Source of the DNA: a virus
Taxonomy: Duplodnaviria > Heunggongvirae > Uroviricota > Caudoviricetes
Reading direction: 5' to 3' (one strand)
IMG/VR virus record: IMGVR_UViG_3300035396_000446
Coordinates: 35,006-99,005 of that record
DNA: 64,000 bases
Position numbers and translations under genes: made by a program. Below, one piece after another: positions 7,578 to 61,218 of the stretch (position 1 is the first letter of the stretch; every line of letters starts with the position of its first letter). Under the pieces are notes generated by a model. The model saw only the letters and a program-made list of their open reading frames with translations, was not told the origin of the DNA and did not search any database.

Positions 7578-7867
7578 TCTTGACCTGTTACCGTTTCAGA
7601 AAATTTATTATCTTCTGCTTTTATTTTGTCTATGAACTTCTTATAATCAGACAAAGTAGTTAGCATTCCATCTGGAATAACATCTCGACCATTAAAAATA
7701 TGATCCTCAACTATTGTCTCGAAATCTGACAAATCTAACTCATCGAAAAAAGATATTAAGTTATTATACCTATAAAAATCAGATTCAGTAAAGTTTACAA
7801 CTTTCCCCTGTAGTTTGAAAAAGTGAGTAAGACATACATATAGCTGGCTATCTGTATTTTTCTCCAT
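7574..7867 (-). CDS. hypothetical protein
   Basis: 97-aa ORF with overlapping start and stop junctions to both neighbours. Confidence 0.4.
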   Translation of the reverse strand: MEKNTDSQLYVCLTHFFKLQGKVVNFTESDFYRYNNLISFFDELDLSDFETIVEDHIFNGRDVIPDGMLTTLSDYKKFIDKIKAEDNKFSETVTGQE

Positions 7868-8961: not shown

Positions 8962-11900
8962 TTAGTCGAATAAGTTTAAATAATCTAAAACATTGTCTGA
9001 TTTTTTTGATTCTACTAAGGATGCTTCAATATCCAGTATAACAGAGCTCAGTTGAACGTTATTGAGGTCTCTCTTTCTACTAGCGTCAAAAAGCTGTGAG
9101 ATTACCTTTTTGATAGACAAAAGGTCAGGAAAAACACTGGCATATAAGCTATTTATCGCTCGTAAATATGCCCTACAAAAATCCTCAAAAAATTGTTTAT
9201 TTGAAAAATTTAGATTTTTTGAGTTCATAGCTTTTTTACTTTTAAAAAAACTATCTAGCTTCTTTTTATTTAATCCAAAAGAATCTACGTCTGTTGCAAG
9301 TATTTCACGCACAGCGTCGCCCATTTGTATAACATAGGTTCCTTCCGAATTTTTAGATATTTGCGTTATACTAACTGTATCTAAAGCTTCATCCTCTAGT
9401 AATTTAGCAACCCTTAGAAAAAAACTACCGATCTTATTTTGTTTTTTATCTACTATTAGCTTATATAACTCCATTGTATCACTTGCATAAATAGATTGTA
9501 TAAAGCTAGATAGAGTCATATTTATCTGTGCAACACCCTCTCCTCCAGTTGCTTTTATTTTCTTTAAAAATGCATCACTAATTATTGTGCATACATTATT
9601 AGGAGACATGGATTTATTCTTATCATCGTATGCATTAGAAAATGGCTTTACATTTATAGAATCTAGAAAAGCTGCGAATACTTCTCTAGACACCTTACTT
9701 CCAGAAAATATCATATCCTTTATAGAGGAATTAGTAATCGTTTGACCTTTAGTATTTATAATTCTGTATTTATCCACAAACTTCATTATTGCATAGACTA
9801 AGGGAGATCTAGAATCCACATTGATATCTCTGGTGGAGATGTCATATTTTTTTATCTGCGAAGTAAAGTCTTTAGCTTTTTTTTGTAACGTTGTATCGTT
9901 TAAGTAACTAAGAAAAGTTTCATTTTTAGATATTGACTTTTTAGAAATATAATTTGCTCTCTGAAGACTCGGTTGAAGCTTTGACTGTTCTTCTACACTG
10001 CTATTGTATATATTCACAAATTCTGTAAACATTTTATTTAAGGTAGAGTAAGGAAGCCCATACATTATATAGAAAGAATAAGAAGCGAACCACTCTTCTA
10101 AACTTACAAGACTTATAGCATCCTTTGATAAAATGGAGCTATATTTTTGTGTATCTCCAATGATATCCCGAGCGCCATTTATAATACCTTTTATTTGTGC
10201 ATCTGTTAGTATCAAGTTTCGATGCTGTGAACTAGGTACCATGCCTTTTTGAGTTTTATATATAACCGGGACGGCTCCCACTGCCGCATCAGCAGTTAGA
10301 GGAAGGGGCATCTCTAGAAGGATTGCGTCGTCCTGAGATATAGAGAGGTCTTCTGAAAGAACATTATCCTTTATAACTTTTCTTATCTGTTTAAATAGAT
10401 TTTCTATATCCAATTCTTGATTCATGCTCTTTACTGTTTGGAAAGAATTACCACTTTCAGAAAGAAAGTTTCTTAGGACTCCCTCACAGTAATCAACATC
10501 TGACAGTAAAGTAGATTGAATTCTATTGTAAATCTTATTTACTCTGTCTCTCTGATACTCAGAGGAATTATCTAATTCTTCCGCATCATCTTCAGGTGTC
10601 AGTACATCTACTAGGTCTGAATCTGTTGTTATCATTGGATCTTTAATTTTTAAACAAGTAGACAATAGTACAGAATATGTATTACTAACGCGAGAATACT
10701 TATATAGACCATCTCCCTCTTTATTTTTAGTAATATAAGTGTCCAATAAAGACCTGAGCTTTTGAAAATACTTTTTAATATTTTCTTCTTTGAAAATAAA
10801 ATCCTCATCCTCTATTGCCATAATCCTAGATTTTTTTGCAGACTGCTCTTTAATTAACATCTCTACTGGTAGTAAAGAACCTAGGTGTGACATATAAGAC
10901 TCAAAGTATTGAGAAAGATCTGTTTTTTTCCTCTCTCCAATAAAGTCATTATAAAAATTTAAAACAGAGTTAATTTCTGCTACCGGGTTAGTTATTATAA
11001 GACCTGCTTCAACTTGCCCATCATTTTTATTGTCATTTATACTTCTATACTTATTAAAGTTATAGACATTCCCCCAACCACCCTTCGAAGTTCCATCATA
11101 GTAGAAAAATGAAGAATCTCTAATTTCTAATGGTAGAAAATAACTTCCTTCCGCAGTCTTTAATGTTTCAACCGTATCTATAGCATAAATAGCAGTGTAT
11201 GTTTTACCTTCATACGTAACCTTTGGAGGATTCCCAGCAACACCTAAATCACTATATTTTACCATTATAGCGCCAGCCTGCGTAAATCCATCACTAAGCT
11301 TTATCGAAGTATCAGTATATTTGTCATTTAAAACCATATTAGCATATTGCAGCTTTCCGTTATACTGAAGATGGTCTACCTGATTATTATCCCCATCTAT
11401 TATCCTACTTAGACCACTTTCACCCTTTTTTACTAACTTTGGCATATAAGAGTAATGAGGTAATTGATAATAGTGAAAATAGTTAATTATGTTGTCTATA
11501 TTATCAACAGAGATTTTATATGAACCATCTCTCCCTTGTATTTCTATAACGTCGCTGCCTTCAAACAGGCTGGTTAGATATTCTGCTGCTTCTTTTGGTT
11601 GTTTTATAACATCATCAGGATACAGCACATGATAAAGAGTTTCCGGAAGAACTTCCTCGTCCTTAGTATATGTAAGTTCCTTACCATTTTTTTTAATAAT
11701 ATTTAAGCTTTTTGATATTTTACCGCCTAATAGCCTTTTGTGCATAAAAGCATAGAATAATATCTCGTTTATTACTTGTGCAAAAACAAAAGCATTATAC
11801 TGAAGATCTACTTTATCTATATTTTTCTTTTCTTGTTCTGATATATTATTGAATATATCTACTATTCTTTGATCTCGTCCTATGACTATATTCTCTACTT

Positions 11901-12543
11901 CAGTGTCCTCTAATTGTTTTATAAAAGGATCTAAAGAATAGTTCAGTATATCTTGGAAATTTTTATGACCTATTATATTCCCTTCATAAAATTGATTAAA
12001 AAGTGTTGATATTTCCTCTCTATTTTGACTTCTAACTCCATATGACGCCCTCTGCTCTTTTGTTTTTATTACAAGAGGCAGACTAATATTTAAAATAGGG
12101 TTACCTTCCTCATCAAAGTCTGTTTCTTCAATAGCAACATCAGGAAGAGGTTTGTAGGAATGTATAAAGGGAAGAAGTATTACCAGTATTTTTTTCTTCG
12201 CTTCATCATTTAAAGTAGAGGAAAATTTAGGTTGAAGAACTTGATTAATCCATTCGAAAATACCATGCTCATTTTGTGGTGTGTGTTTCGCATTACTTAA
12301 TTCACTGATGCCTAGTAATTTTTTCACTATAAGAGCAAGGGACATAACATCACAAGGGGGTTGCCCATAAGACATGTAATATCTCTTAGCATCATCTCTC
12401 GCAGCCACACCCACTATGTTTTTTGGGTCGCTATATCTTGAGTCAGCACTCTTCGCCTCTTGTAGATCACATTTCTTTATAACTTCAGATGCAATGTCTA
12501 ATAAATAAGCCATATTATTTTTCCTTTTTCTTAGTCTTCCCAA
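8962..12543 (-). CDS. large hypothetical protein (1193 aa)
   Basis: Single uninterrupted 3.58-kb ORF on the gene strand immediately upstream of the FtsZ-like gene. No catalytic motif recognised; could be a virion or cytoskeleton-associated protein. Confidence 0.6.
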   Translation of the reverse strand: MGRLRKRKNNMAYLLDIASEVIKKCDLQEAKSADSRYSDPKNIVGVAARDDAKRYYMSYGQPPCDVMSLALIVKKLLGISELSNAKHTPQNEHGIFEWINQVLQPKFSSTLNDEAKKKILVILLPFIHSYKPLPDVAIEETDFDEEGNPILNISLPLVIKTKEQRASYGVRSQNREEISTLFNQFYEGNIIGHKNFQDILNYSLDPFIKQLEDTEVENIVIGRDQRIVDIFNNISEQEKKNIDKVDLQYNAFVFAQVINEILFYAFMHKRLLGGKISKSLNIIKKNGKELTYTKDEEVLPETLYHVLYPDDVIKQPKEAAEYLTSLFEGSDVIEIQGRDGSYKISVDNIDNIINYFHYYQLPHYSYMPKLVKKGESGLSRIIDGDNNQVDHLQYNGKLQYANMVLNDKYTDTSIKLSDGFTQAGAIMVKYSDLGVAGNPPKVTYEGKTYTAIYAIDTVETLKTAEGSYFLPLEIRDSSFFYYDGTSKGGWGNVYNFNKYRSINDNKNDGQVEAGLIITNPVAEINSVLNFYNDFIGERKKTDLSQYFESYMSHLGSLLPVEMLIKEQSAKKSRIMAIEDEDFIFKEENIKKYFQKLRSLLDTYITKNKEGDGLYKYSRVSNTYSVLLSTCLKIKDPMITTDSDLVDVLTPEDDAEELDNSSEYQRDRVNKIYNRIQSTLLSDVDYCEGVLRNFLSESGNSFQTVKSMNQELDIENLFKQIRKVIKDNVLSEDLSISQDDAILLEMPLPLTADAAVGAVPVIYKTQKGMVPSSQHRNLILTDAQIKGIINGARDIIGDTQKYSSILSKDAISLVSLEEWFASYSFYIMYGLPYSTLNKMFTEFVNIYNSSVEEQSKLQPSLQRANYISKKSISKNETFLSYLNDTTLQKKAKDFTSQIKKYDISTRDINVDSRSPLVYAIMKFVDKYRIINTKGQTITNSSIKDMIFSGSKVSREVFAAFLDSINVKPFSNAYDDKNKSMSPNNVCTIISDAFLKKIKATGGEGVAQINMTLSSFIQSIYASDTMELYKLIVDKKQNKIGSFFLRVAKLLEDEALDTVSITQISKNSEGTYVIQMGDAVREILATDVDSFGLNKKKLDSFFKSKKAMNSKNLNFSNKQFFEDFCRAYLRAINSLYASVFPDLLSIKKVISQLFDASRKRDLNNVQLSSVILDIEASLVESKKSDNVLDYLNLFD

Positions 12544-13492: not shown

Positions 13493-14497
13493 TTAAATAA
13501 ATCTGTAATTATCGTCCTGAATAGGCTCTAATCCAAGTTTATCAAACATGATGTCCTCTACTGTGCTATCTATCTCTTCTAGGTACTCTGATTCCACTGT
13601 TTTTTTTATACTTTTTTCCTGGTCTCGCATAAACTTAGGTTTATTTCCAACAAACTCAGGGATATGTGATTTCTTATTAGGGTCCGTATTTTTAATGAAG
13701 TTATCTATACCTAGTAAAATATACTTAATATCTTCTTCCGAAAAATTATAGTCCCTTCTCAACTCCTCAGACAACGTATCTGGGGAATAAGTGGGAGATT
13801 TTGAGAAACGTATAATATTATTGAAAGTATCCATCACTTTATCATGAATCTTTTTAAAATTTGCATCTTTGTTAGAGAGTTCAGTAAAATGTTTTGGAGA
13901 TTTCATGGTGTCGATCTCATTGTCTGCTACATAATTTTTTACAATAGATTTAAAATAATCAATAACAGAAACAGACCTTGCAAAAACATCTTTTAATAGC
14001 TCTAAGTTTTCAACCTCGGCAGGTGTGTTGTTTTCACTTGACGGTATATTATTTTGAATTTCCTCATCTGGTGCGTCATCTTCAAATGGGTCTTTTCCTG
14101 TCTTAGACTCTATGGCATCCGCTTCCTTTTCTATCTTCTGTTCTTCTTGATCATTTGATGCTTCAAGACTTGCTAGTTTCTCTATGGTTGCTGATAGTTC
14201 TTCTTGTTTCTCTTCAACCGGTTTATTATCTATGGAGTTCGGATTAGAAGATTCTTTTAAAAAGTTTTGTTCAAACTCTTTCTTAAAATTAGAAACATAT
14301 TCATCGAATAAATTTAAAAGAACGCCTTTTACTTGCCCTGTCTTATGTGTTTTTATATAGGCTTCTGACCAATATCTAAAAAGAGATAGACTTCTAATAA
14401 TAGAGTAGGCCGCTGATACTTCGGGGGATGTGTCTTCTTTTAAGATATTGGAAGATTTTAAATATGTACTACATAGTATATCATCTAAATTTGCCAT
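13493..14497 (-). CDS. hypothetical acidic protein
   Basis: 334 aa, strongly acidic central region (EEQKIEKEADAIESK...DPFEDDAPDEE). Confidence 0.45.
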   Translation of the reverse strand: MANLDDILCSTYLKSSNILKEDTSPEVSAAYSIIRSLSLFRYWSEAYIKTHKTGQVKGVLLNLFDEYVSNFKKEFEQNFLKESSNPNSIDNKPVEEKQEELSATIEKLASLEASNDQEEQKIEKEADAIESKTGKDPFEDDAPDEEIQNNIPSSENNTPAEVENLELLKDVFARSVSVIDYFKSIVKNYVADNEIDTMKSPKHFTELSNKDANFKKIHDKVMDTFNNIIRFSKSPTYSPDTLSEELRRDYNFSEEDIKYILLGIDNFIKNTDPNKKSHIPEFVGNKPKFMRDQEKSIKKTVESEYLEEIDSTVEDIMFDKLGLEPIQDDNYRFI

Positions 14498-14826
14498 TAT
14501 TTTACATCCTCGATTTGTTTTCTAATAGAATCAAATAAAATATTAAGCTCATTATATAAGTTTTTAGCACTCTCAGTAGATAATACAAAAGATTTCTCTC
14601 CTAAATTTAAGTTCTCTAGATACTTCTGGATAATCTGATCAATACATTCATTTATAACTTTTTTTAATTTAACTTTATATCCGATGTCAGAGAATAGACC
14701 CTCTTGCAGAGTATCTTCCATTGTCATGCCAACTGAGTATGACTCTAGTAAAAATTTCTCTTCTGATATTAAACCATTTTTAAAATCAGATACTAGTTTA
14801 TTCTTCTTGTATATAGTTTCTAGCAT
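14497..14826 (-). CDS. hypothetical protein
   Basis: 109-aa ORF; its start overlaps the stop of the upstream gene. Confidence 0.4.
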   Translation of the reverse strand: MLETIYKKNKLVSDFKNGLISEEKFLLESYSVGMTMEDTLQEGLFSDIGYKVKLKKVINECIDQIIQKYLENLNLGEKSFVLSTESAKNLYNELNILFDSIRKQIEDVK

Positions 14827-15682
14827 CGTTTATATATTCCCCCTGAACACGTGGTTTCCGTGATGATTTATACTGCTTAGTAGCGTCAGTAGTAGAGTCA
14901 GATACTGTTTCTGTCGGAGTCTCAGGTGGCTGACCGACCGGTGGTTGGTCTACCTGTGTCGTAGTCGCCGGTGTCTGAGTTGTCAAAGGAGCACCTTTAC
15001 CACTGAGTATTGTGTCCAACTCTCTTTGTTGTGTTAGATATAACTGTTTATTTCTTGCGAAGTCGTCTTTTATTTGAGCGTTTTGTTCTGGGTCTATTTG
15101 ACTCTGTATTTGGTTGTTAGGAGATAATTTTGTTCCGTATCTCGCAAAATAAATAACTTTGCCTTTCTCTGGATCGTTTGTTTTGCTTATCTTTGCAAAA
15201 AAAGCATATAATTTAGTAAGTCTAGGATCTCCACTTTTAATAGCCTGTACCGTAGGGGCGAACGATTGCTGACCTATCTTAGACTTCATAGGTCCCGCTT
15301 CTAATTTTTGTAAAATTGCATTTCTTGATTTCTGATCATCTCTTAGTTTCAGCTTTTCAGAAACAAGTTTTAAGTAATTCTGGGAACTTGACTCATATGA
15401 TTTATTAATAGCCTGGTTATATTCGGACTCTATTTTTGATATGGCTTGGGTTTGTCTTTTGACTACATCATTCTTCATAGCGTCCGTTGCACCAGTCATA
15501 ACTCTATTTCCAAGGTCCCCTATCCTATCTAGAAGACCCTCATTAATAAGGTCCTGTTCCGACACCCCTATCGCTATACATTCTTTTAAAATTTCAGTTC
15601 GGGATAGTTTATTTGCTCTTATTTTTTTGAATAGTATAGTTTTCTTTTGTTCTTTCTCTAGTAATTCTTCTATATATGACAT
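14798..15682 (-). CDS. hypothetical protein with C-terminal Thr/Pro/Gln-rich linker
   Basis: 294 aa. The GC-rich stretch 14860-14960 encodes TQTPATTTQVDQPPVGQPPETPTETVSDSTTD. Confidence 0.45.
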   Translation of the reverse strand: MSYIEELLEKEQKKTILFKKIRANKLSRTEILKECIAIGVSEQDLINEGLLDRIGDLGNRVMTGATDAMKNDVVKRQTQAISKIESEYNQAINKSYESSSQNYLKLVSEKLKLRDDQKSRNAILQKLEAGPMKSKIGQQSFAPTVQAIKSGDPRLTKLYAFFAKISKTNDPEKGKVIYFARYGTKLSPNNQIQSQIDPEQNAQIKDDFARNKQLYLTQQRELDTILSGKGAPLTTQTPATTTQVDQPPVGQPPETPTETVSDSTTDATKQYKSSRKPRVQGEYINDARNYIQEE

Positions 15683-15749
15683 ATTGAAATCCTTTTATTG
15701 GCATAGAATATAAGAATTATCTTTATTTTATTTATTTTTTTCGCATAAA

Positions 15750-16988
15750 TTAAGAATTGTAGAAGATATTTGTGACTTTAACGGGAGCCACATCTATCTT
15801 TAACTGACGATAAGCTTCGAGAGCGTGAAATCCGGATAATGCTTGAAACTTTATCTTCCTTGACCTAATTCCAAACTCCATAGCTAATATATCCGACTGT
15901 TGCCATAAAACAGGCTTTTCAAAAGTTTCTTTTTTCTCTATTTTATAAACATACTCTTTAATTTTTTTATGGTCATATTTTGTAAAGTTTCCAAGTTTAA
16001 ACTTCTCATTGTAGTTGTTGATTTCTTCAATAGGCACCTCTGCATCCAATAGAAACTTATCTTTACCATTTTTAAATGGTAAAATTTTGATTAAGTTCTC
16101 ATACTCTTCTTTTTCTTTTGTTGGAGCAAATAATGTTAAGTTTTCCTTGAAATCGAATATCAGGTCTTTATTGATTGGCACATCATTTGGAGTATAGAAG
16201 CAAATTGTATTCTTATTCAAAATCCCTGCCAAGCAGAATAACAAGCTAATATTACAAATAACATGTTTAGAGTTTCTAACTAATTCTATAAGAGTGAGAA
16301 CATTCATATCTTCACTTATAAGGCGAGTAGCCCCGTCGATTATACTTGTGTTTATCTCTATTATTTTATACTTTTTTAAGTCATCTTTACTGTATTTATT
16401 AATAACTTCATCAAATATAAGTTTATCTATTGTTTTTCGTTCATTTCTACCTTGCAGTTGCACCAGAATATACTCGCCAACTATGTCATTGTTCTGTAAG
16501 AATCTATTTACATTATCTTTTTTAGAGGAAGTGTCTGGTAGATAGTAAACAGGTTTTTCATGCTGAATTTGAAGTCTTGTTAAAAAGAAAAAGTAATTAT
16601 TAAACCTGTAGTCATTTTTAACGACGGTGTCTTTATACTGGATCAAAGGTACTTTATCATATTTAATAAATTTTCTAATATATGACACTTGTTGCTGTAT
16701 TGCTCCTACATTTAATGCTATTACATCTTTCTCTTTTACCCATACGTTAGATAAAAGATGATATTTTTCTATGATGTCAGTGCAAGCATCTAAGTACTCA
16801 TTCATATAAGAGGTTGTATTAAACGCAGGTTGATAAGGGCTAAGAACTGCTAAATGAATTATTTTTTCTGGATTTCTTTCTTTATATACCTTAAGGCAAG
16901 AGATGAATACAATTAAATCATCTAATCCATATGGAAAAATATAGAGCTCTTTATTAGACCTGTTATCAATTTTATTTAATTGTACCAT
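15750..16988 (-). CDS. putative glycosyltransferase, divergent GT9-like (GT-B fold)
   Basis: 412 aa. N-terminus ELYIFPYGLDDLIVFISCLK resembles the GT9 LSxLGD N-terminal motif. C-terminal HVICNISLLFCLAGILNKNTICFYTPND resembles the GT9 DTGxxHLAAAxxxPxVxLFGPTD region. Adjacent to a clear GT9 enzyme. Confidence 0.4.
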   Translation of the reverse strand: MVQLNKIDNRSNKELYIFPYGLDDLIVFISCLKVYKERNPEKIIHLAVLSPYQPAFNTTSYMNEYLDACTDIIEKYHLLSNVWVKEKDVIALNVGAIQQQVSYIRKFIKYDKVPLIQYKDTVVKNDYRFNNYFFFLTRLQIQHEKPVYYLPDTSSKKDNVNRFLQNNDIVGEYILVQLQGRNERKTIDKLIFDEVINKYSKDDLKKYKIIEINTSIIDGATRLISEDMNVLTLIELVRNSKHVICNISLLFCLAGILNKNTICFYTPNDVPINKDLIFDFKENLTLFAPTKEKEEYENLIKILPFKNGKDKFLLDAEVPIEEINNYNEKFKLGNFTKYDHKKIKEYVYKIEKKETFEKPVLWQQSDILAMEFGIRSRKIKFQALSGFHALEAYRQLKIDVAPVKVTNIFYNS

Positions 16989-16999
16989 TTTTATTGCCC

Positions 17000-18442
17000 T
17001 TACTCAGTATAACAAATAGTATAGACATCTTTATCCGCCATAGTTATATTTGCATATTCTACTAATGTTGGTAAAGTAGTTTTAATCATATCCATGTCTA
17101 TTGTCTTCTGCTTTATGTAAGATGTTTTATTGTATTTGCTGAACTTATCTATAATAATAAACTTTTTATTTTTATATTTTTCTAGGTCTTTGAAGCTATC
17201 TAACCAAGATAGAGTATTGCTCATAAATACTGTATCTACATCTTCTGGTAGCTCATTACTGTCTGTTATCAAAGTATAATTATTTGGTATATTAAAAGAC
17301 CCCGGATATTTATCATATCCATACATTTTTTCAAAAGTTTTACTCAAAGCAATATTGAATACTCCCATGCCAACTCCAAAATCCAATACAGTTTTTCCAA
17401 AAATGTCCTTTTTCTCTGAAAGAAGGGCAAGAACATTTGGTAAAAAAGAAATAGATTCAGGCTCGTAGCTATGATGCCTTTTCCAAAATCTTTCTATGTT
17501 TTTTTCAGGATAAGGGAACACTTTCTCTATTCTAAGAGCAGCCTCTACTACTTCATCCGCAGGAAGAGAGTATAAGCACTCCACATTTTTTTGCTCTTTT
17601 TCGCATTGAGTCTCGCTTACCATCATAACACAAGGCTGGCATTTCATACCTTTTGTAACAATAGCAATTGGATTATTCCAAGGTTTAACCCGTACAGAAG
17701 GAGTAGGCCCGAGAATCATTACAGTTGGAGCCCCTGTTGCGTTAGCAAGATGAGTATTACCACTATCGTTCCCGAGATACACACCGCAATTTGCAATTAG
17801 TCCAGCGGTCTCATATAGGTCTAACTTACCAATAAAGTTAGAGCAATTGTTTGGAAAATTAAACTTATCGTCTTTTTCAGAAGATCCTCCGACAATAGCG
17901 ATATTACCCTTCAATCTTCTTGCAACCTCTGCAAAATAAGGGTACTTTTTATTATTCCCGCCTGCGCCAGCACAAATAACGTAATCAAAATATTCAAACT
18001 CATTCGTAGGAAAATTAACCTTTGCTCTTGGAATTTCCCCAATATACCCCAATTCTCTGGCATAACGAAAGTTAAGCTCCGTGTCATTCATTTTACCAAG
18101 GTCTTTGGCTATATCTGGGTCTTGCATAACCTCAGAACCATCAAAATCTTCCTTCCAATATTTGTAGGACTCAATATGCCCAAACTCGGTAAGAATTATT
18201 TTACTGTAACCTTGTTTACCAATTCTTTCCGCATGTACATTATAAATATTATTAACTTCGGGAATAGAGAAAAGTTGTCTATACCCTGAAAAATTACATC
18301 TAATCGCAAGGTCTACGGTATACCCGAGCTCATGAATAGCTATGATTGTTGGGGTAATTTGGATCATATTTCCAATACCCTCTCCCATAAAAATTAAAAC
18401 TTTTTCTTTTGAATCCAATGTTTCATCCTTTCTATATAGCAT
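17000..18442 (-). CDS. GT9-family glycosyltransferase (heptosyltransferase-like) fused to a C-terminal class-I SAM-dependent methyltransferase
   Basis: 480 aa. GT9 motifs: KVLIFMGEGIGNMIQITP (N-terminal), ICAGAGGNNKKYP...IAIVGGSSEKDD, LGNDSGNTHLANATGAPTVMILGPTPS. C-terminal VLDFGVGMGVFNIALSK is SAM-MTase motif I. Confidence 0.7.
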   Translation of the reverse strand: MLYRKDETLDSKEKVLIFMGEGIGNMIQITPTIIAIHELGYTVDLAIRCNFSGYRQLFSIPEVNNIYNVHAERIGKQGYSKIILTEFGHIESYKYWKEDFDGSEVMQDPDIAKDLGKMNDTELNFRYARELGYIGEIPRAKVNFPTNEFEYFDYVICAGAGGNNKKYPYFAEVARRLKGNIAIVGGSSEKDDKFNFPNNCSNFIGKLDLYETAGLIANCGVYLGNDSGNTHLANATGAPTVMILGPTPSVRVKPWNNPIAIVTKGMKCQPCVMMVSETQCEKEQKNVECLYSLPADEVVEAALRIEKVFPYPEKNIERFWKRHHSYEPESISFLPNVLALLSEKKDIFGKTVLDFGVGMGVFNIALSKTFEKMYGYDKYPGSFNIPNNYTLITDSNELPEDVDTVFMSNTLSWLDSFKDLEKYKNKKFIIIDKFSKYNKTSYIKQKTIDMDMIKTTLPTLVEYANITMADKDVYTICYTE

Positions 18443-18511
18443 ACTACGTCTAGACTTAGCACGAGGTAGGCTTTCCTATATTGTTTTTTCTTGATAAAAT
18501 AAAGTACGTCT

Positions 18512-18790
18512 TTAATTCCCATCGTGTAAGTATGCGTGTGGTTCGTAAGTTGCTCCGCATATATTACATTGACGGTAACTATTAACATACGGAACCTTTT
18601 CGTGTAAAACTAAACGCCCATTTTTACAATTTGGGCATAGATCTTTGACAGCTACAATATTGTGTATCTCTGAAATCAACATCTGGTCTTCCAGGATATG
18701 TAACAGCAACCGAGCTCGATCTTTTTTCGTAAAATCTTCTGTTTCTGTCTTTGCTAATTTCAAAATTAATTCTATGTATTCTTTATTCAT
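18512..18790 (-). CDS. small zinc-ribbon protein
   Basis: 92 aa with CPNCKNG...CNICGATY (CxxC...CxxC). Confidence 0.4.
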   Translation of the reverse strand: MNKEYIELILKLAKTETEDFTKKDRARLLLHILEDQMLISEIHNIVAVKDLCPNCKNGRLVLHEKVPYVNSYRQCNICGATYEPHAYLHDGN

Positions 18791-19410
18791 GGGTTACTCC
18801 TATAAAAATCTTCTGCGAATCCCTGGGAACACATTGACCGAATATCTGCGTCCGTTTTAATGTGCTCTTTCGCCCACTGAAACTCTTCAATATAATTTAC
18901 GGCGCTTTTGTGTAGGAAAGCAAGGGCGGGCTTCGGCCTCCCTGGTCTGACATATAATTTATCATTCTTTGGCACGTCTTCCCATTTGGTGTATCTGTAC
19001 GCAGGCATAGTAAACCTACCCCATAAGGCAGTGTCTTTCGTCCAAGGGCTCCCAAATTGCCAAGGCTGATAGGCCGCAACAGGATCTCCGAGAACCTCTC
19101 TTAGTCTGCCTCTTGCGGGGTTTTCTAGTACCCACCATTTAGGATTACATTGCTCAATAATTCTTAGGCAATGATTTACTAAAAACATCCCTTTTTCCAT
19201 ATCATTAACCTTATGAAATCCCTTCGCTGTGGACAGATCCGTGCAAACGGGGTTCGCAATAATCCCATGTACGTTTTTAGGCGGTATAAAATTTTCCACG
19301 CCTATTTTTTCTCCAACCATAATTACTTCATAGTTGTCTTTATCTCTTTGATAGAACAAACTATCACTACCTAAATCCGCACATAAATGCAAAATTATCT
19401 TTTTTTCCAT
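18787..19410 (-). CDS. C5-cytosine methyltransferase-like catalytic core, short, no obvious target-recognition domain
   Basis: 207 aa. HLCADLGS is motif I-like; IIANPVCTDLSTAKG resembles motif IV (PCQ, with PC-T); WWVLENPARG resembles motif VI (ENV). Only 207 aa, so atypical or truncated. Confidence 0.45.
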   Translation of the reverse strand: MEKKIILHLCADLGSDSLFYQRDKDNYEVIMVGEKIGVENFIPPKNVHGIIANPVCTDLSTAKGFHKVNDMEKGMFLVNHCLRIIEQCNPKWWVLENPARGRLREVLGDPVAAYQPWQFGSPWTKDTALWGRFTMPAYRYTKWEDVPKNDKLYVRPGRPKPALAFLHKSAVNYIEEFQWAKEHIKTDADIRSMCSQGFAEDFYRSNP

Positions 19411-19427
19411 ACTTTATTCTACCATAA

Positions 19428-21311
19428 CTAAGCTATAATGTCAATAGTATTTCTTAATCTTAAAACTTCTTTCATTTTTGCAAATATGAAAGCGTCTGGG
19501 TTATGAAATAAGCTTCCGTTTAAAATACGATCTTTCTCTAATATATAGCAAGCAAGCTCGTCCATTTCTCCAATACACTCTAAATAATAGCAATTAACAT
19601 CACTTTTCTGCCCAATTCTATGAGACCTAGCCTCCGCCTGAAAATGCCGTATAGTTTCCATGTATATATCGAAAAATATATGGTCGTTAGTATTCAGTAA
19701 GGTAATGCCTGTGTCCATTACCAAAGTAGAAAATAATGCCAATTTGCATTCAGGATCATTTATAAACTTATCCTTTCTCGCTTCTCTTTCTTTTATTTGG
19801 TCTTTCCCTGACTTTGGGTTTTCGCCATGAACAACTACAGGGTTGTATTTCTTAAATACCTCTGCCAAATAGTCCAGAACCGCTGGTTGATAGCTCCAAA
19901 TAACAACATCCCTTCCAAACTCATCGATAAGAGTTTCTAGGTAATCTTTTATAATACTGATCCTCGGATTATCTTCAACCGGAGACGCTATAAATCTAAG
20001 AACAGATAACATATGCTTCTTTATATCAGAATAATGGATAGTTTTACCATTTATAAATAAATTTTGTTTTTCTAAATCCTTCGTAATCTCATCTATGAAC
20101 TCAAGGTAACTTTTCTCAAAACTAGTATCTCTCAAGGAGTACCTTAAAAAAGAAATATTTAAGTCAGGCAAGTCAAGATGATCTTTTTTAAACGCTCTTA
20201 ATATATATGGGCTTAGGTCTTCATCTATGAGTTTTTTAACTTCATTCCTATAATAATACTCTATCTGCTTGTTTTTAAAACCACCTTTTTTGCATAATCT
20301 ATTTTCAAAATCATCATAGGGTTGAATTATTATACCAAGAGACAGTATTCGCATAAGAGCCCATAATTCTAATGGAGTTTTTCTTATTGGAGTTCCTGAG
20401 AGTAAATATCTGAACTCAAAACACGGAGCCTCTCTCATTATAGTTTGGGTTGTTTTACTTTTTTTTGAGCTTGCTTTATGTGCTTCATCTAAAATAAGAC
20501 AATATTTCCCATTTGAAGTAACTTTCTCTAATACTTGCTTGTACCCACCGTAATGAAATCTTCCTAAGTCCTTCTTCTTCTCTCTAAGCATTTTTACTTG
20601 CTCAGAGTCTTTTGCATACCCATCTTTTAGAAGTTTCTCTATTTTTCCATCAAGTTTATTCTTTTTTTTATCATACTCTACAAAGGCCTCGCTCTGTTCA
20701 TTACATACAATTTTAAAACTATCATATGTCATTATGTATATTTTCTTATTGAGTTTGAAAGGATCTCGATGCTCTTCTTTATTTGTATTTATTATTAAAA
20801 TATCATCTTCAGTAAAATCATTAGAATATTTTAAAAACTCTATTTTCCAATTGTATAAAACTGAGGGAGGACAAACTATAATGCAATTCGTTGCATTATT
20901 ATATCTAAAATGATAAGTAAATGTAACAATGGCGATATATGTTTTCCCTAAGCCTTGTTCAAAGAATAAACCAAAAGCGTTAGTGTTACACATGCGAGAT
21001 ATGCCTGTATATTGAATATCATAAGGTTTATAAAGAAATAAATCAATTGGTACACGTTTTTTAGTAAACCAAACAGTTAGTAGTTGCTCTTTTAACTCCA
21101 TAATCTGTTTTTCAGCGTCTGGATGAACATAGGTCATAAACTTAATAAATTCATAGTAGAAATTAACTATGTTTTTTTTACTAAGTTTGATAAAACCATC
21201 GGTTATTTTCTCATAACCACATACTTTCGCTATGGTATGAACTTCTGAAATGTCTTTTTCTAATTTAACAAAAAAAAACTTGGAATCCGAGTCCCAATAC
21301 AAAGATGACAT
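19428..21311 (-). CDS. SNF2-family helicase/ATPase
   Basis: 627 aa with QGLGKTYIAI (Walker A), LILDEAHKASS (DEAH box), LLSGTPI (motif III) and a C-terminal helicase-C segment (FSTLVMDTGITLL...HRIGQ). Confidence 0.8.
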   Translation of the reverse strand: MSSLYWDSDSKFFFVKLEKDISEVHTIAKVCGYEKITDGFIKLSKKNIVNFYYEFIKFMTYVHPDAEKQIMELKEQLLTVWFTKKRVPIDLFLYKPYDIQYTGISRMCNTNAFGLFFEQGLGKTYIAIVTFTYHFRYNNATNCIIVCPPSVLYNWKIEFLKYSNDFTEDDILIINTNKEEHRDPFKLNKKIYIMTYDSFKIVCNEQSEAFVEYDKKKNKLDGKIEKLLKDGYAKDSEQVKMLREKKKDLGRFHYGGYKQVLEKVTSNGKYCLILDEAHKASSKKSKTTQTIMREAPCFEFRYLLSGTPIRKTPLELWALMRILSLGIIIQPYDDFENRLCKKGGFKNKQIEYYYRNEVKKLIDEDLSPYILRAFKKDHLDLPDLNISFLRYSLRDTSFEKSYLEFIDEITKDLEKQNLFINGKTIHYSDIKKHMLSVLRFIASPVEDNPRISIIKDYLETLIDEFGRDVVIWSYQPAVLDYLAEVFKKYNPVVVHGENPKSGKDQIKEREARKDKFINDPECKLALFSTLVMDTGITLLNTNDHIFFDIYMETIRHFQAEARSHRIGQKSDVNCYYLECIGEMDELACYILEKDRILNGSLFHNPDAFIFAKMKEVLRLRNTIDIIA

Positions 21312-21328
21312 ATTTTTTCCTTGTGCAT

Positions 21329-21357
21329 ATTATATAATGAAAAAAAATTCTTGTCAA
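21329..21357 (-). promoter_or_regulatory. sigma70-type consensus promoter (TTGACA-N17-TATAAT) for the SNF2 operon
   Basis: Minus strand reads TTGACA (plus 21352-21357), a 17-nt spacer, then TATAAT (plus 21329-21334), followed by AAGGAAAAAAT-ATG of the SNF2 gene. Confidence 0.6.
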
Positions 21358-21387
21358 GAGTAAAGATAATACTATAAGGAATAGATA

Positions 21388-22587
21388 ATGTTTACTGATA
21401 GAATACTAGATTTAGCCGGTATAAGAAATTCAAATAACTCCCTCAATACTAAGGGACGAAGTTTTAGTGATTTATGGACAATAAAGGAAGATGGCGCAAT
21501 ACAGGGGTCAAGTCTAGATAGAGTCTTAGAACTAGCGGGAGAATCTCTACTAGAGATGATTCAGGTCTCAAAGGCTAACAATGAAAGCGATTACGATATA
21601 ATAGCCTACAAAGATAAGATTTTTACTTACAATAATGAACAAAGAGAGGAAGTCGCGCCACTAATAATAAAGCATCTTGGATTAGAAAATTCAGAAATAC
21701 CTTATAACAACACTCCAATTGAAAACATGGAACAAGTTGAATACTATATTCAAGAAGAAGGCCCAGATGTTTTATATGGACGAGTATCGGACAATACTCT
21801 TTATCTTCACAGTTACGTTTTTAAGCACTCTAAACTTTCTTCTCTACTTAAAAAGGTTGTAAATCAGTTAGATATACTTGAAGTTAGTTATGATTATATT
21901 ACTAATGATGGAGAAGATTCTGAGGTTATAGTAAGACGAAATGAGATTGACGAAGAAATAAAGAATCACGTATTCTACCATGGCACTAGCTCCAAAGCTT
22001 TATATGGTATAGCACAAAAGGGGCTAATGCCAGGTGGAAGTAAAACTAACTTCCCAGGAATAGAGCATGATGAAGATATTTTCATTACAGTAAACAAAGA
22101 TAAGGCTTTTTTTCATGCGGAGACTGCTGCTAGAAATAACCAAGACATTCCTGTTATATTGGAATTAAGAGTTCCTAATCCATCTTTGCTGGGAGATGAT
22201 TATGATGTAGTTGTCAATATACTTAAATCTAACTCTGAGAAAAGCGATAGGTATGAGAATATAAATAGTAAAGTACGGAGACCAAAGACAACAGCGGATG
22301 AGAGTCTAATAAAAAGATTAACAGACACTGGAGAAGATATAAATAAAAAACTTGGTATATTTTCCTATTCTGGCAGAATCCCTGCAACTTATATAGACTC
22401 CTTTTTAATCGATGATGAAGCCTTTTCTTTTTATCACGTATACGAGGAAAAACCTGACAAAATAAAAGATTTAAACTCATGGGATAGGTATGATTTAAAA
22501 GATTTCAATGGTTATCTCGAAGATATAGAGAATAAATACGCACAAGAACAGGAAGATTACGAAGAAGACTATGAGGAAGAGGATTAG
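21388..22587 (+). CDS. ADP-ribosyltransferase-superfamily protein, Tpt1/KptA-like (RNA 2'-phosphotransferase / NAD-dependent)
   Basis: Only long plus-strand ORF (399 aa). VFYHGTSSKALYGIAQKGLMPGG...FFHAETAARNN...IPVILELR parallels E. coli KptA [23 protein letters not shown]...HLSADEATARKVG...SPVILTV. The HGT motif is also shared with diphtheria-toxin-class ARTs. Acidic C-terminal tail. AAGGA RBS 8 nt before the ATG. Confidence 0.55.
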   Translation: MFTDRILDLAGIRNSNNSLNTKGRSFSDLWTIKEDGAIQGSSLDRVLELAGESLLEMIQVSKANNESDYDIIAYKDKIFTYNNEQREEVAPLIIKHLGLENSEIPYNNTPIENMEQVEYYIQEEGPDVLYGRVSDNTLYLHSYVFKHSKLSSLLKKVVNQLDILEVSYDYITNDGEDSEVIVRRNEIDEEIKNHVFYHGTSSKALYGIAQKGLMPGGSKTNFPGIEHDEDIFITVNKDKAFFHAETAARNNQDIPVILELRVPNPSLLGDDYDVVVNILKSNSEKSDRYENINSKVRRPKTTADESLIKRLTDTGEDINKKLGIFSYSGRIPATYIDSFLIDDEAFSFYHVYEEKPDKIKDLNSWDRYDLKDFNGYLEDIENKYAQEQEDYEEDYEEED

Positions 22588-24537: not shown

Positions 24538-25407
24538 TTAAATATCAAATGTTTGTCCGACTTCTAGAAATCCTCGGAATCCGTCATCTTTTGCTTTTGT
24601 TTTCCAATCGCAAGGTTTCCCAAAGAAATCTTTATCATCAAGAACATAATCTTGATAATGACTTAACCACATTTTATTTTTAATTTCTAAAGGTAGCACC
24701 TCGGCATTTGCTTCTGGATACCCCGCTAATTCTGTGTAATTTGCATGTACCCCTGATTTGAAGGGTAGACACTCACAATCTTGAATAATAATATCAGCCT
24801 TAGAGTAAAACACTCTCACTTGTTTCGGGGAACAATGTTGGGAGTCCGTTGTAAAGTAAATAGATTGATGACCTTGCTTACTCACAATAAGGCCAAATGT
24901 ATCACTAATTTTAGATCCTGTCATTATGTGAACCTGTTGGATAAGTTCAAAGTTCCAACCCTGCCATATAAATGACTTATCTACGGGCTTTGGCTCAAAG
25001 TAAGTTTCAATTGTAGCGTCAAATCCCTCCATGGATTCTAAACCACCCCTTAATGTGTTTTTCCAAAGACTTTTAATTAATTCCTTCTGCGCATATAATT
25101 TAGGAGCATAGGGTTTCATCTTACCAATGTTTTCTAGCTGTGTAAAATCATTCCATCTTACAGGTCTATTCATCCAGTCATACCTATCAAAGGCGAAGTT
25201 CTCTAGAGATCCGCAATGATCGTTATGCTGATGTGAGATATATACACTATCTATATCTTTAAAAGATAACCCAGCATTTGTTAATGCCTCGGGGACTAGC
25301 CTCCCACAATCAATTAGCATTCGTTTGCCGTCCTGCTCTAGCACAAAGCTCTGATTAAAATTTCTTTTTGAGAATGCATTACCACATCCAATTATTGTTA
25401 TACGCAT
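24538..25407 (-). CDS. metallo-beta-lactamase-fold hydrolase (RNase Z/PhnP-like)
   Basis: 289 aa with MRITIIGCGNAF, LIDCG and ISHQHNDHCGSL (the HxHxDH zinc motif). Confidence 0.7.
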   Translation of the reverse strand: MRITIIGCGNAFSKRNFNQSFVLEQDGKRMLIDCGRLVPEALTNAGLSFKDIDSVYISHQHNDHCGSLENFAFDRYDWMNRPVRWNDFTQLENIGKMKPYAPKLYAQKELIKSLWKNTLRGGLESMEGFDATIETYFEPKPVDKSFIWQGWNFELIQQVHIMTGSKISDTFGLIVSKQGHQSIYFTTDSQHCSPKQVRVFYSKADIIIQDCECLPFKSGVHANYTELAGYPEANAEVLPLEIKNKMWLSHYQDYVLDDKDFFGKPCDWKTKAKDDGFRGFLEVGQTFDI

Positions 25408-25420
25408 ATTATTTTTCCTT

Positions 25421-26347
25421 TTATTTGATATAAAACCCGTTAGAATCTAACGTATCTATTTTTTGCTTTTGGGTTACAAAAACATCATAGAACTCATCTA
25501 CAATAAGTCTCATTTCTAAACTAAGCTGATTTAGTATTGGAGACTTGATTGCATTAGGTATTCCATAGAAAGCCTCTGCTATGCCCCCTACGATTGCGCA
25601 TAGAGTATCTGTATCCCCGCCTACCATAACTGCGTTTCGTATAGCATCTTCAAAGCTGGTAGAGTTTACAAAGCAATTAAAAGCTAAAGGCACTGTTCCT
25701 TGGCATGTTACATCGAACTTGTATGTTTTACTTATTACTTCTAAATCATCCCCAAGTAGGCTTCCCCTGTAAGGTGTCTCTACCCCTCGATAATGATCTG
25801 TGTATCCATTGATATAACATAAATCTAAAAACTTACACATGGAAGTATTAAAATCTCCCATCTCCGCTATGCTTGTTTGTAAAGCATTGTAAACCATTCC
25901 TGCTGTAGCTTGAGCCCCATATATGCCCTCTGAGTGATTATGGGTTACAGCCGCAGACTTAGCTGCTTCGATATGAATAGTTTCTATCGGGCAACTCAAA
26001 CTATAAGCGTATGCCACAGGAGCGACACGCATGGCTGACCCGTTACCATAACTATTGTAGGGGTTATTATCTTTATTTAACAGCCAAGCATGAAAACTCT
26101 GACCAAACCCAGATTTATACTTTCGTTGTTTATTAGAAAATGTGCTATTCTTAGAATACTTATTACCCCAATACTTATAGCATACCTCGTATGGCATTTT
26201 GTTTAACAGAGCATCCATAGTTGCTACTGTAAGAATTGTGTCGTCCGTAAAGAAACAAGAGTCATTAAACAAAGGAAAATCCTTGCTTCTATGATTCTCA
26301 AACTCGTATCTTGAACCTATGTAATCACCAATAATTGAACCTAACAT
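25421..26347 (-). CDS. ADP-ribosylglycohydrolase (ARH/DraG family)
   Basis: 308 aa with MLGSIIGDYIGSRYEF, FFTDDTIL, GNGSAMRVAPVAY and MVGGDTDT..AIVGGIAEAFYG, all hallmark ARH motifs. Confidence 0.75.
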   Translation of the reverse strand: MLGSIIGDYIGSRYEFENHRSKDFPLFNDSCFFTDDTILTVATMDALLNKMPYEVCYKYWGNKYSKNSTFSNKQRKYKSGFGQSFHAWLLNKDNNPYNSYGNGSAMRVAPVAYAYSLSCPIETIHIEAAKSAAVTHNHSEGIYGAQATAGMVYNALQTSIAEMGDFNTSMCKFLDLCYINGYTDHYRGVETPYRGSLLGDDLEVISKTYKFDVTCQGTVPLAFNCFVNSTSFEDAIRNAVMVGGDTDTLCAIVGGIAEAFYGIPNAIKSPILNQLSLEMRLIVDEFYDVFVTQKQKIDTLDSNGFYIK

Positions 26348-26952
26348 TTTTTATCCTTCTTATTTACTACCCATTTTTGTACGTCCATAAAGAGGATAAT
26401 GGGCGGTTCCCCTCTTCTTTTATGTTTGCTAAAATGATACCAGCCTACGACCATCATCCCTGTTTCAAATTTTCCATCTTCTCTAAGCTCGGAAGAGAAC
26501 ATGGGCATTCTGGATAATATATCCACGGAGCATAGGTAACTGCCATAAATATCTTTTTCAAACCTTTCTTGCCCAGACAAATGAGCAATTGGCATAAGTA
26601 AAAATACATTGTTTGCTATTTTTAGTGAATGTTCAATAATTTTCAAAGTATCTTTATACGGTGGGTTTGACACTATTACATCATATTTTTCTTTAATATC
26701 GAAGAAATTTACGCCAGTATTAAAGGAATTTACGCCGTCAGATATATCAGAGCCTGTTATGTCTAATTTATCATTCTTCTCTTTCAGAGCTTGTACTATG
26801 GCACCCTTACCCGCAAATGGCTCTAAAATTCGATTACCTTTTAGAAAACTACTATACATGCGGTAGAACTCATAGGTTATACCCTTTGGAGTTTGATACA
26901 TGTCATTTGGATTTCTTTGACCTACATTGGCCAAGGAGTATCTTTTACCCAA
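26341..26952 (-). CDS. DNA N6-adenine methyltransferase (phage Dam-like, NPPY class)
   Basis: 203 aa with YQTP near the N-terminus, ILEPFAGKGAI (motif I) and VIVSNPPYKD (motif IV). Confidence 0.7.
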   Translation of the reverse strand: MGKRYSLANVGQRNPNDMYQTPKGITYEFYRMYSSFLKGNRILEPFAGKGAIVQALKEKNDKLDITGSDISDGVNSFNTGVNFFDIKEKYDVIVSNPPYKDTLKIIEHSLKIANNVFLLMPIAHLSGQERFEKDIYGSYLCSVDILSRMPMFSSELREDGKFETGMMVVGWYHFSKHKRRGEPPIILFMDVQKWVVNKKDKKC

Positions 26953-56065: not shown

Positions 56066-56094
56066 ATTTTACCATGATATATGATTTTTGTCAA
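56066..56094 (-). promoter_or_regulatory. sigma70-type promoter TTGACA-N17-TAAAAT (TGg extended -10)
   Basis: Minus strand: TTGACA (plus 56089-56094), 17-nt spacer ending CATGG, TAAAAT (plus 56066-56071). Overlaps the 3' end of the nucleotidyltransferase gene and marks the end of the five-gene operon. Confidence 0.5.
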
Positions 56095-57026: not shown

Positions 57027-57036
57027 TATTATATCC

Positions 57037-59512: not shown

Positions 59513-59536
59513 CTGGATAGGTGCATACCTTAATTG

Positions 59537-60289: not shown

Positions 60290-60304
60290 GTTAATGCTCC
60301 TGTA

Positions 60305-61105: not shown

Positions 61106-61138
61106 ATATTATCCTGTTAGTTTTTTTTTAGGAAGCTT

Positions 61139-61167
61139 ATTATACCATGATTGTATAAAAAAAGCAA
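61139..61167 (-). promoter_or_regulatory. sigma70-type promoter TTGCTT-N17-TATAAT (TGg extended -10) for the pncA-vWA-PP2C-kinase-NTase operon
   Basis: Minus strand: TTGCTT (plus 61162-61167), 17-nt spacer ending CATGG, TATAAT (plus 61139-61144). Leader ends ACAGGATAATAT-ATG of pncA. Confidence 0.55.
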
Positions 61168-61218
61168 GTCCTTATTCCGAATTATCTAAAAAATTTTCTA
61201 TTTTTTTTCTTCGCCTTT

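Follow-up and report, generated by a model that had tools for sequence, protein, structure and literature searches.

A rare, conserved pair of phage genes putatively encoding a two-subunit GT9 glycosyltransferase/methyltransferase

Glycosyltransferases of family GT9 are, to our knowledge, so far known only from lipopolysaccharide (LPS) and autotransporter glycosylation. The genes described here lie at positions 15750-21311 of a 64,000-nucleotide stretch of viral DNA (hereafter the window), which represents positions 35006-99005 of a 190,870-bp metagenomic contig (ENA ERZ27248460 k141_226049). Two of these genes encode a 480-aa protein, in which a GT9 domain is fused to an S-adenosylmethionine (SAM) methyltransferase domain, and a 412-aa protein with a predicted GT9 fold. 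Several described systems share features with this pair. In the GtfA-GtfB system, the GtfB subunit is non-catalytic and binds the acceptor. This O-GlcNAc transferase of the serine-rich-repeat adhesins of Gram-positive bacteria combines an active GT-B enzyme with a required paralogous GT-B-fold partner, and its low-complexity protein substrate is encoded in the same locus (PMC6291802). In chlorovirus PBCV-1, A064R is a fusion of two glycosyltransferase domains and a methyltransferase domain, which adds a sugar to the capsid glycan and O-methylates its terminal residue (PMC7826918). Phages also carry clusters for DNA sugar-hypermodification, composed of C5 methyltransferases, 5mYOX (TET) enzymes and glycosyltransferases, with heptose among the products and sometimes with ParB-like activators (PMC8256090, 10.1101/2023.12.21.572611, PMC13229309).

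A preliminary description of this DNA had grouped the pair with two upstream genes, encoding an SNF2 helicase and a 207-aa C5-methyltransferase-like protein, in a single modification cassette. We favor a different reading, with a probability of about 0.4, in which the stretch holds three independent units, namely the SNF2 helicase, a minimal C5 methyltransferase and a rare conserved glycosylation module, the two proteins of which form a heteromeric enzyme. The features of this module and of the genes that follow it are:

17000-18442, minus strand: 480-aa protein, fusion of a GT9 domain and a SAM methyltransferase domain
17543-18403, minus strand: GT9 (heptosyltransferase-family, GT-B) domain of the 480-aa protein (PF01075, 1.4e-19; matches to RfaF, TibC and 3tov)
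17003-17515, minus strand: class-I SAM methyltransferase domain of the 480-aa protein (Methyltransf_11/23/25 type), with a DxGxGxG motif and an acidic residue after strand 2
15750-16988, minus strand: 412-aa protein, predicted GT9-fold domain followed by a predicted ParB/sulfiredoxin (Srx)-fold C-terminus
15999-16961, minus strand: predicted GT9-fold domain of the 412-aa protein, detectable by structure only, with a degenerate donor motif
15765-15980, minus strand: predicted ParB/Srx-fold C-terminal domain of the 412-aa protein, without a GxxR or CHR nucleotide-binding motif and reading QALxG[FLI]xxLxAY
14798-15682, minus strand: basic low-complexity protein (294 aa, pI 9.2) with a T/P/S/Q-rich tail, counterpart by position and by N-terminal motif of basic proteins after the pair in relatives
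14497-14826, minus strand: 109-aa paralogue with the same N-terminal motif of about 50 aa (phmmer E 0.0023 to L006:9656-10291)
13493-14497, minus strand: acidic low-complexity protein (pI 4.6), counterpart by position, not by homology, of acidic E/D/P-rich proteins in L004 and L007

The 480-aa protein matched PF01075 with 70.8 bits (cut-off 22), a match that covers its donor-binding half only. When the family profile was compared to the PDB, RfaF (2.4e-6) and TibC (4e-4) were recovered along with the type-11 SAM methyltransferase 3i9f (1.4e-6) and 3dh0 (2e-4); the methyltransferase half of the profile also matched many small-molecule and protein methyltransferases. The single sequence scored below the Pfam thresholds for a methyltransferase domain, PF13489 or PF08241 is recorded for three of its homologues (P0123, P0127 and P0128), and the SAM-binding residues D354, G356, G358, G360 and D377 are invariant in the family. 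Only six full-length homologues were identified (40-44% identity), all of which keep the fusion. The 480-aa protein fits none of the named LPS heptosyltransferase equivalogs (I, II, III and RfaQ), the best score being 43 bits for heptosyltransferase II (cut-off 134.6), and it scored 16 bits against the Aah/TibC family TIGR04414 (cut-off 200). A cluster of four Cys residues after the GT9 domain was considered as a possible TibC-like "iron finger"; the Pfam GT9 match spans at least the first two of these residues (C268 and C271), so that the cluster was not taken as TibC-specific.

Alignment of both families with E. coli WaaC, WaaF and WaaU, at low identity, showed that the 480-aa family has retained K(R/K)(W/Y)P and NDSGxxH, the motifs of the donor site, with K165 of NK(K/R)(Y/W)P invariant. 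The position of WaaC Asp13, the catalytic base, is taken in this low-identity alignment by an invariant Asn25, and an invariant Glu21 found four residues upstream may substitute for this base. On the motifs only, ADP-heptose would be the donor. The family is acidic overall (pI 5.1-5.8), and so is its acceptor (N-terminal) half (pI 4.8-6.1, net charge -3 to -8), whereas the acceptor domains of E. coli WaaC, WaaF and WaaU are basic (pI 9.6-10, net charge +6 to +10).

By comparison, the 412-aa protein had no match in Pfam, NCBIfam or PHROG, and its family profile and its C-terminus retrieved nothing meaningful from PDB sequences. An hhalign comparison of the 412-aa with the 480-aa family revealed no profile similarity (probability 0.3%). 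Structure models, built from the single sequence and from a 3-sequence alignment, predicted a GT-B fold closest to GT9 structures and, in the C-terminal domain, a ParB/Srx fold with SerK and SbnI among the Srx-fold matches. This domain was placed at about residues 337-408 from segment lengths, secondary structure and a ParB-like pattern recognized by eye; no sequence match of the C-terminus to ParB or Srx was found. The motif QALxG-[FLI]-[HPS]-x-L-x-AY, equated by eye with the ParB/Srx motif, has no conserved Arg, Cys or His. In addition, the donor motif NDSGxxH is replaced in the 412-aa family by N-[ITV]-S-[LFY]..[CQ], with loss of the His. As both the donor motifs and the ParB/Srx catalytic motif are missing, the 412-aa protein is probably a non-catalytic partner (pseudo-enzyme), that is, according to the models, a GT9-fold paralogue that has lost its donor site and is fused to a degenerate ParB/Srx domain. 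The 412-aa family is mildly basic (pI 8.5-9.0) and keeps an Asp at the WaaC Asp13 position even though its donor motif is gone. In this low-identity alignment the two families thus show a reciprocal pattern, the donor motif with Asn at the Asp13 site in one and Asp without the donor motif in the other, which could stem from an active site that they share or complement, or from coincidence.

The pair is conserved as a unit. In three distantly related phage contigs (L004, L006 and L007), the gene directly after that for the 480-aa homologue (40-44% identity) encodes a protein of 416-432 aa that is homologous to the 412-aa protein (33-38% identity). The GT9/methyltransferase fusion and second GT9-fold protein of the preliminary description are a real conserved modification module. 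A basic, K/A/Q-rich low-complexity protein (pI 9.2-9.7) is encoded downstream of the pair in all four loci, and a strongly acidic protein follows the basic one in three of the four; these proteins come directly after the pair or within one short open reading frame (ORF) of it. A hidden Markov model made from the N-termini of the 294-aa and 109-aa proteins ranked the syntenic L006:9656-10291 first among 257 ORFs (E 2.7e-6), and the search in the opposite direction ranked the 294-aa protein first among 258 ORFs with an E-value of only 0.11. Pfam and PHROG scans of the downstream low-complexity proteins and a PHROG scan of the 412-aa relatives gave no match. No homologues of the SNF2, 207-aa or 92-aa proteins were detected within 10 kb of the pair in the three relatives, where the upstream genes differ from those of the window (peptide deformylase and others). 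Hence, the conserved unit, as far as sequence comparison goes, is the pair plus the motif proteins, and this block holds together while its surroundings change.

The module is also rare. An exhaustive HMMER search of 1.84 billion representatives returned only three full-length members of the 412-aa family, including the query, and the public data searched, which comprise billions of proteins, contain about 7 sequences of the 480-aa type and about 4 of the 412-aa type. Searches of IMG/VR, JGI metagenomes and GTDB genomes with the 480-aa family profile recovered only distant GT9 domains or loci already known, and tblastn of either protein against phages gave zero matches; neither IMG/VR nor the cultured phages were found to contain the pair. 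The preliminary description had called GT9 enzymes unusual in phages, which is true in part, as several GT9-annotated phage proteins are present in BFVD. No description of a GT9/methyltransferase and GT9-like/ParB-Srx pair was found in the literature searched.

The low-complexity proteins, located at 13493-15682 in the window and at L004:12801-14581, L006:9656-10291 and L007:12763-14678, have an N-terminal motif of about 50 aa in common, and PEPE and KKKETPKPE repeats occur among them. Downstream of the block, the relatives carry a split DnaE replication module that is missing from the corresponding position in the window. In L004 (14668-20057) and L006 (10372-16365) the DnaE-type polymerase is split over several ORFs (finger, HHH_6 and PHP/alpha) that lie among small ORFs, and homologues of the 68-aa and 121-aa proteins of the window are found within this block. 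At L004:1-6297, 4-10 kb upstream of the pair, three canonical PF00145 C5 methyltransferases, a NadR-like CTP_transf/CoaE protein and a NAD synthase are encoded; no dioxygenase was detected in this segment.

By analogy with GtfA-GtfB, the 480-aa and 412-aa proteins could form a heteromeric two-subunit enzyme. The 480-aa protein would be the catalytic subunit, with a GT9 donor site of the ADP-heptose type and a SAM methyltransferase, and the 412-aa subunit would recognize or activate the acceptor; the catalytic subunit would then add a sugar, possibly a heptose, and subsequently O-methylate it. The two proteins are predicted to be oppositely charged (pI 5.1-5.8 and 8.5-9.0). A protein is tentatively proposed as the acceptor, the candidates being the basic low-complexity proteins whose genes lie just downstream of the pair in each of the four known loci, because these proteins are adjacent and conserved, the acceptor domain is acidic and protein-acting GT9 enzymes exist. 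DNA ranks behind a protein and is an unlikely acceptor, host LPS or another envelope component ranks third and is improbable, and RNA or a small molecule accounts for what is left. Of the two envelope or glycoprotein targets offered by the preliminary description, LPS thus loses ground on account of the acidic acceptor domain, and the protein target is the one favored here.

Several observations weigh against this interpretation. The donor motif of the 480-aa protein is of the LPS-enzyme type (NDSG) and not of the TibC type, and the Asn found in its family in place of the WaaC catalytic Asp could point to a non-canonical mechanism. The model of the 412-aa protein is only moderately confident (pLDDT 64). 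The N-terminal motif of the downstream proteins is significant in one search direction only, and in the relatives these proteins are not notably rich in Ser/Thr and their tails are not conserved. The genes are located behind early-type promoters and beside replication genes, which fits an action on DNA or in counter-defence better than glycosylation of the virion, and ParB-fold domains in phages are mostly tied to DNA-modifying enzymes (PMC12704722, PMC13229309). Finally, the two-subunit model is a proposal by analogy, and both the complex and its acceptor are putative.

Comparison with the described systems shows partial likeness in each case. As in GtfA-GtfB, there is a candidate active GT-B enzyme (480 aa), a predicted GT-B-fold partner (412 aa) and low-complexity proteins at the locus; GtfA-GtfB differs in being bacterial and not viral, GT4-like and dependent on UDP-GlcNAc, and it has neither a methyltransferase nor a ParB/Srx domain. 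The 480-aa protein resembles A064R as a virus-encoded glycosyltransferase-methyltransferase fusion with the same sugar-then-methyl logic, but A064R belongs to a eukaryotic virus, has rhamnosyltransferase instead of GT9 domains, acts on a known acceptor (the capsid N-glycan) and has no pseudo-enzyme partner. With WaaC and WaaF (CAZy GT9), the 480-aa protein shares the GT-B fold family, PF01075 and the donor motifs K(R)WP and (N/V)D(S/T)GxxH, and the 412-aa protein appears to share the fold. Differences from these enzymes include the unrelated, acidic acceptor domain, the Asn in place of Asp13, the methyltransferase fusion, the obligate degenerate partner and the sub-equivalog scores. TibC and AAH, the autotransporter O-heptosyltransferases that form the protein-acting branch of GT9, are set apart by the low TIGR04414 score and by the donor motif, which is LPSG in TibC. 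The combination of a ParB fold and a Methyltransf_23-type domain in one phage functional unit recalls the phage ParB-CTPase-fold fusions (with N6_N4_Mtase and Methyltransf_23; PMC12704722), in contrast to which the domains predicted here are distributed over two adjacent proteins, each fused to a GT9 fold, and the arginine of the ParB P-motif is missing. The text of that survey mentions no glycosyltransferase fusion (PMC12704722).

The pair is a variation on known enzyme kinds and not a new category. If it works as proposed, it would include the first GT9-family enzyme characterized from a virus and the first glycosyltransferase fold fused to a ParB/Srx fold, and in it the "active enzyme plus dead paralogue" logic of GtfA/GtfB would have a counterpart among viruses. 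With two genes and adjacent candidate substrates, it is a small, testable system that could reveal how phages decorate macromolecules with methylated sugars. Its significance would be greater if the acceptor were DNA or a DNA-associated protein.

Among the alternatives, the least unlikely is that the pair glycosylates and methylates a base of the phage DNA, with the ParB/Srx subunit as a DNA-directed activator and the hydroxylated base made by an enzyme whose gene lies elsewhere in the genome; such a pathway might work with or without a contribution from the 207-aa methyltransferase. The predicted ParB/Srx fold of the 412-aa protein would fit this role, as would the early type of the promoters and the replication genes found beside the pair in the relatives (split DnaE and a clamp loader), together with the SNF2 and C5 methyltransferase genes beside it in the window. 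Typical fusion partners of the ParB fold in phages are DNA methyltransferases and Methyltransf_23 (PMC12704722), the latter being the Pfam family that matches the methyltransferase domain in two of the 480-aa homologues. Moreover, a ParB-like protein with mutated NTP-binding residues still activates a phage thymine dioxygenase on double-stranded DNA (PMC13229309), and phage GT-B enzymes place heptose on 5-hydroxymethylcytosine (bioRxiv 10.1101/2023.12.21.572611). However, a search of about 83 kb of the 190-kb contig (approximately 25-108 kb of the record) and of the ±10-kb flanks of the three relatives turned up no TET/JBP, no dCMP/dUMP hydroxymethylase and no other enzyme that generates a hydroxyl group, and the 207-aa gene is unlinked to the pair in other genomes; in the regions searched, the combination of a C5-activating enzyme with sugar transferases suggested in the preliminary description thus lacks a hydroxyl-generating step. 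A thymidylate synthase gene is present and encodes an intein-containing ThyX, which was ruled out as a hydroxymethylase because it belongs to the flavin-dependent Thy1 family. The locus hence differs from the C5 methyltransferase/5mYOX/glycosyltransferase clusters in having neither a hydroxymethyl-pyrimidine enzyme in the regions searched nor a conserved co-occurrence of methyltransferase and glycosyltransferases; moreover, those clusters have GT-A or T4 beta-GT-like enzymes and not GT9, and their C5 methyltransferases are recognized by Pfam and have a target-recognition domain (TRD). The 480-aa family is acidic throughout, and we know of no GT9 enzyme that acts on DNA. In addition, GATC is strongly depleted in the whole window (92 observed, 197 expected under a Markov model), which would be unusual for a genome with globally masked cytosines; the majority of 4-base palindromes are mildly depleted and the CpG odds ratio is 0.65, which together suggests restriction avoidance and not blanket DNA modification. 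The avoidance of GATC and the lack of a base-hydroxylating enzyme in the regions searched therefore weaken the case for hypermodified DNA. Doubtful, and ranked below it, is the proposal that the pair is a new nucleic-acid or nucleoprotein modification system, in which the GT9 enzyme would be directed by the degenerate ParB/Srx adaptor to phage DNA or to the adjacent basic, DNA-associated proteins and would install a methylated heptose, independently of the T4 beta-GT-like and GT-A DNA glycosyltransferases.

Remodelling of the host envelope would have the GT9 enzyme add a methylated heptose to the LPS inner core, or to another glycolipid of a Gram-negative host, and thereby block superinfection or the loss of progeny on debris. 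LPS heptosyltransferases II, I and III, RfaQ (3e-11 to 1e-7) and RfaF are indeed the sequences that the GT9 domain matches best, the donor motif is of the type found in these enzymes, early expression is compatible with superinfection exclusion, and proteins annotated as GT9 are also known from other environmental phages, one of them a T4-like phage of Synechococcus. All NCBIfam scores, on the other hand, fall far under their cut-offs, and the obligate pseudo-GT9/ParB-Srx partner and the conserved downstream proteins would be left unexplained. Binding of anionic Kdo2-lipid A requires a basic acceptor domain; as the acceptor half of the 480-aa protein is acidic and unrelated to those of WaaC, WaaF and WaaU, action on LPS is improbable. 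We consider it similarly improbable that the pair belongs to the surrounding counter-defence and RNA-repair set and modifies RNA or a small molecule, for instance a tRNA nucleoside or a nucleotide-derived signal. Genes of this set abound in the window and its flanks (an Apyc1-like anti-Pycsar hydrolase, an ADP-ribosylglycohydrolase, an ART-like protein, RNA ligases, RlaP, Thg1 and HAD_SAK_2), Srx-fold enzymes include small-molecule kinases such as the matched SerK and SbnI, and the methyltransferase domain of the 480-aa protein resembles small-molecule methyltransferases. These neighbors are, however, not kept beside the pair in the relatives, the Srx catalytic motif is missing from the 412-aa family, and we know of no precedent for a GT9 enzyme acting on small molecules or RNA. 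Least probable is the literal four-gene cassette, with all four proteins in one pathway. The genes are co-directional and tightly packed after a consensus promoter, but nearly every gene in the window is on the same strand, so that co-orientation is uninformative, and the 207-aa gene has its own promoter and is a GC outlier. Comparative genomics contradicts the cassette, as the four genes do not co-occur in the relatives, where the SNF2 and 207-aa genes are unlinked to the pair, and as the 207-aa gene is a stand-alone phage gene.

The genes and promoters upstream of the pair are:

21329-21357, minus strand: sigma-70-type promoter TTGACA-17-TATAAT (12/12 consensus match), 18 nt upstream of the SNF2 start codon
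19428-21311, minus strand: SNF2-family ATPase/helicase, 627 aa (PF00176 7e-23, phrog_62 3e-66)
19416-19444, minus strand: second promoter TTGACA-17-TAGAAT (11/12 match) with an extended-10 TG, located immediately before the 207-aa gene and overlapping the SNF2 stop codon
18787-19410, minus strand: minimal C5-cytosine-methyltransferase-fold protein, 207 aa, PHROG 757, without a TRD
18512-18790, minus strand: 92-aa CxxC...CxxC zinc-ribbon ORF, the start of which overlaps the stop of the 207-aa gene by 4 nt, with weak zinc-ribbon/Lar matches only

All four ORFs of the preliminary description, at 19428-21311, 18787-19410, 17000-18442 and 15750-16988, were recovered on the minus strand, and its domain calls (SNF2, C5 methyltransferase core, GT9/methyltransferase and second GT9-fold protein) and its consensus promoter upstream of SNF2 proved correct. 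It had overlooked the 92-aa ORF, the promoter at 19444-19416 and the predicted ParB/Srx-fold C-terminus of the 412-aa protein; with a second near-consensus promoter before the 207-aa gene, its claim of a single transcription unit is not established.

The 207-aa protein scored 16.5 bits against PF00145, below the cut-off of 22, and matched phrog_757 ("DNA methyltransferase") at 4e-26. It has a class-I Rossmann fold with C5-methyltransferase topology, and D12-x-G14-S15, P54-x-C56 and E96-N97-P98 are invariant across 51 homologues. P54-V-C56 and E96-N97-P98, assigned by position and by eye, correspond to motifs IV (Pro-Cys, here with one residue inserted relative to the canonical PC) and VI (Glu-Asn-Val). 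Nearly all of the 207 aa align to catalytic cores of 291-388 aa, and the TRD, which lies between motifs VIII and IX, is missing, in agreement with the preliminary description of a C5-methyltransferase core; PDB sequence searches with the protein and with its family profile found nothing meaningful. The family (204-233 aa) has 3759 detected members with 50-78% identity, rising to 70-78% among the top 120 metagenomic matches. Homologues with 50-65% identity occur in small phages of Bacteroides, Tetrasphaera, Thiohalocapsa, Vibrio and Glutamicibacter, and this level of identity thus spans phages of Bacteroidota, Actinomycetota and Pseudomonadota. In the small phages of Bacteroides, Vibrio, Tetrasphaera and Glutamicibacter they are found on their own in replication or early regions, away from any glycosyltransferase gene. 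The GC content of the 207-aa gene (41.8%) is the highest of the 70 ORFs of the window (mean 32.5%, standard deviation 3.5%), which, taken together with its own promoter, points to an independently acquired, horizontally mobile and self-sufficient gene. Most likely, the protein is an orphan DNA methyltransferase with little sequence specificity that would act against restriction; if it is a DNA methyltransferase, the high conservation of the family suggests an invariant substrate or very low sequence specificity. No description of this TRD-less family was found in the literature searched, with searches that were not aimed specifically at it. This very abundant family spans phages of different bacterial phyla, and its specificity merits experiment.

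The 92-aa zinc-ribbon ORF was considered as a surrogate TRD of the 207-aa enzyme, and this was rejected because an equivalent ORF is missing downstream of the homologues, both in L002 and in the phages of Bacteroides and Vibrio; the ORF is not kept beside 207-aa homologues, and the one downstream of the homologue in L002 is unrelated. The SNF2 protein scored above the cut-offs for both PF00176 (81.6 bits, N-terminal domain) and PF00271 (26.9 bits, helicase C). Relatives with less than 30% identity were found in 483 phage records, and the type is therefore common in phages; by sequence, SNF2 is a common phage replication-module protein and generic helicase, unlinked to the pair in the relatives.

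The window has a GC content of about 32.7%, with nearly all genes on the minus strand, and contains seven sigma-70 sites with at most one mismatch (1.5 expected), all seven on the minus strand. The T4-type late promoter TATAAATA showed no enrichment (13 observed, 14.6 expected), and none was found upstream of the pair. Taking into consideration the T4-type structural genes on the contig (Portal_T4, prohead protease S77, Gp23 and large terminase), the genes at 15750-21311 are best placed in the early, sigma-70-driven region of a T4-like phage of about 190 kb. A nucleotide search with positions 15000-22000 of the window against 50,697 phage records gave zero matches, and no host could be assigned through relatives of TnpB or through tRNAs, none of which were found.

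Among the other genes of the window, a tubulin/FtsZ-family GTPase (7867-8901, PF00091 6e-15) is encoded in this phage with a T4-type portal, protease and major capsid protein, and it adjoins a 1193-aa ORF (8962-12543) in which no family was detected. The ThyX/Thy1 (flavin-dependent thymidylate synthase) gene (30439-32049, 536 aa) is split by an intein with an HNH endonuclease region, and an IS605-type TnpB/OrfB (Cas12f-like) transposase gene is located at 28793-30013, close relatives of which were found in 0 of 185,579 reference genomes. Plus-strand ORFs are few. Apart from the portal gene, the only one of at least 150 aa (21388-22587, 399 aa), which is divergent from the SNF2 promoter region, shows weak PARP- and RNA 2'-phosphotransferase-like signals (phrog_11974, 2e-43). 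Near this ORF, at 24538-26952 on the minus strand, an ADP-ribosylglycohydrolase, an Apyc1-like anti-Pycsar hydrolase and a short Eco57I-like methylase fragment are encoded. Genes for RNA repair and signalling are dense at 56091-63150 of the window and at 87-108 kb of the record (L017); they encode RlaP, two to three RNA ligases, a Thg1-like protein, HAD_SAK_2, a SET-domain protein, a Ser/Thr protein kinase with a PP2C phosphatase, a VWA-like protein, a zeta-toxin/AAA_33 kinase and a polysaccharide deacetylase.

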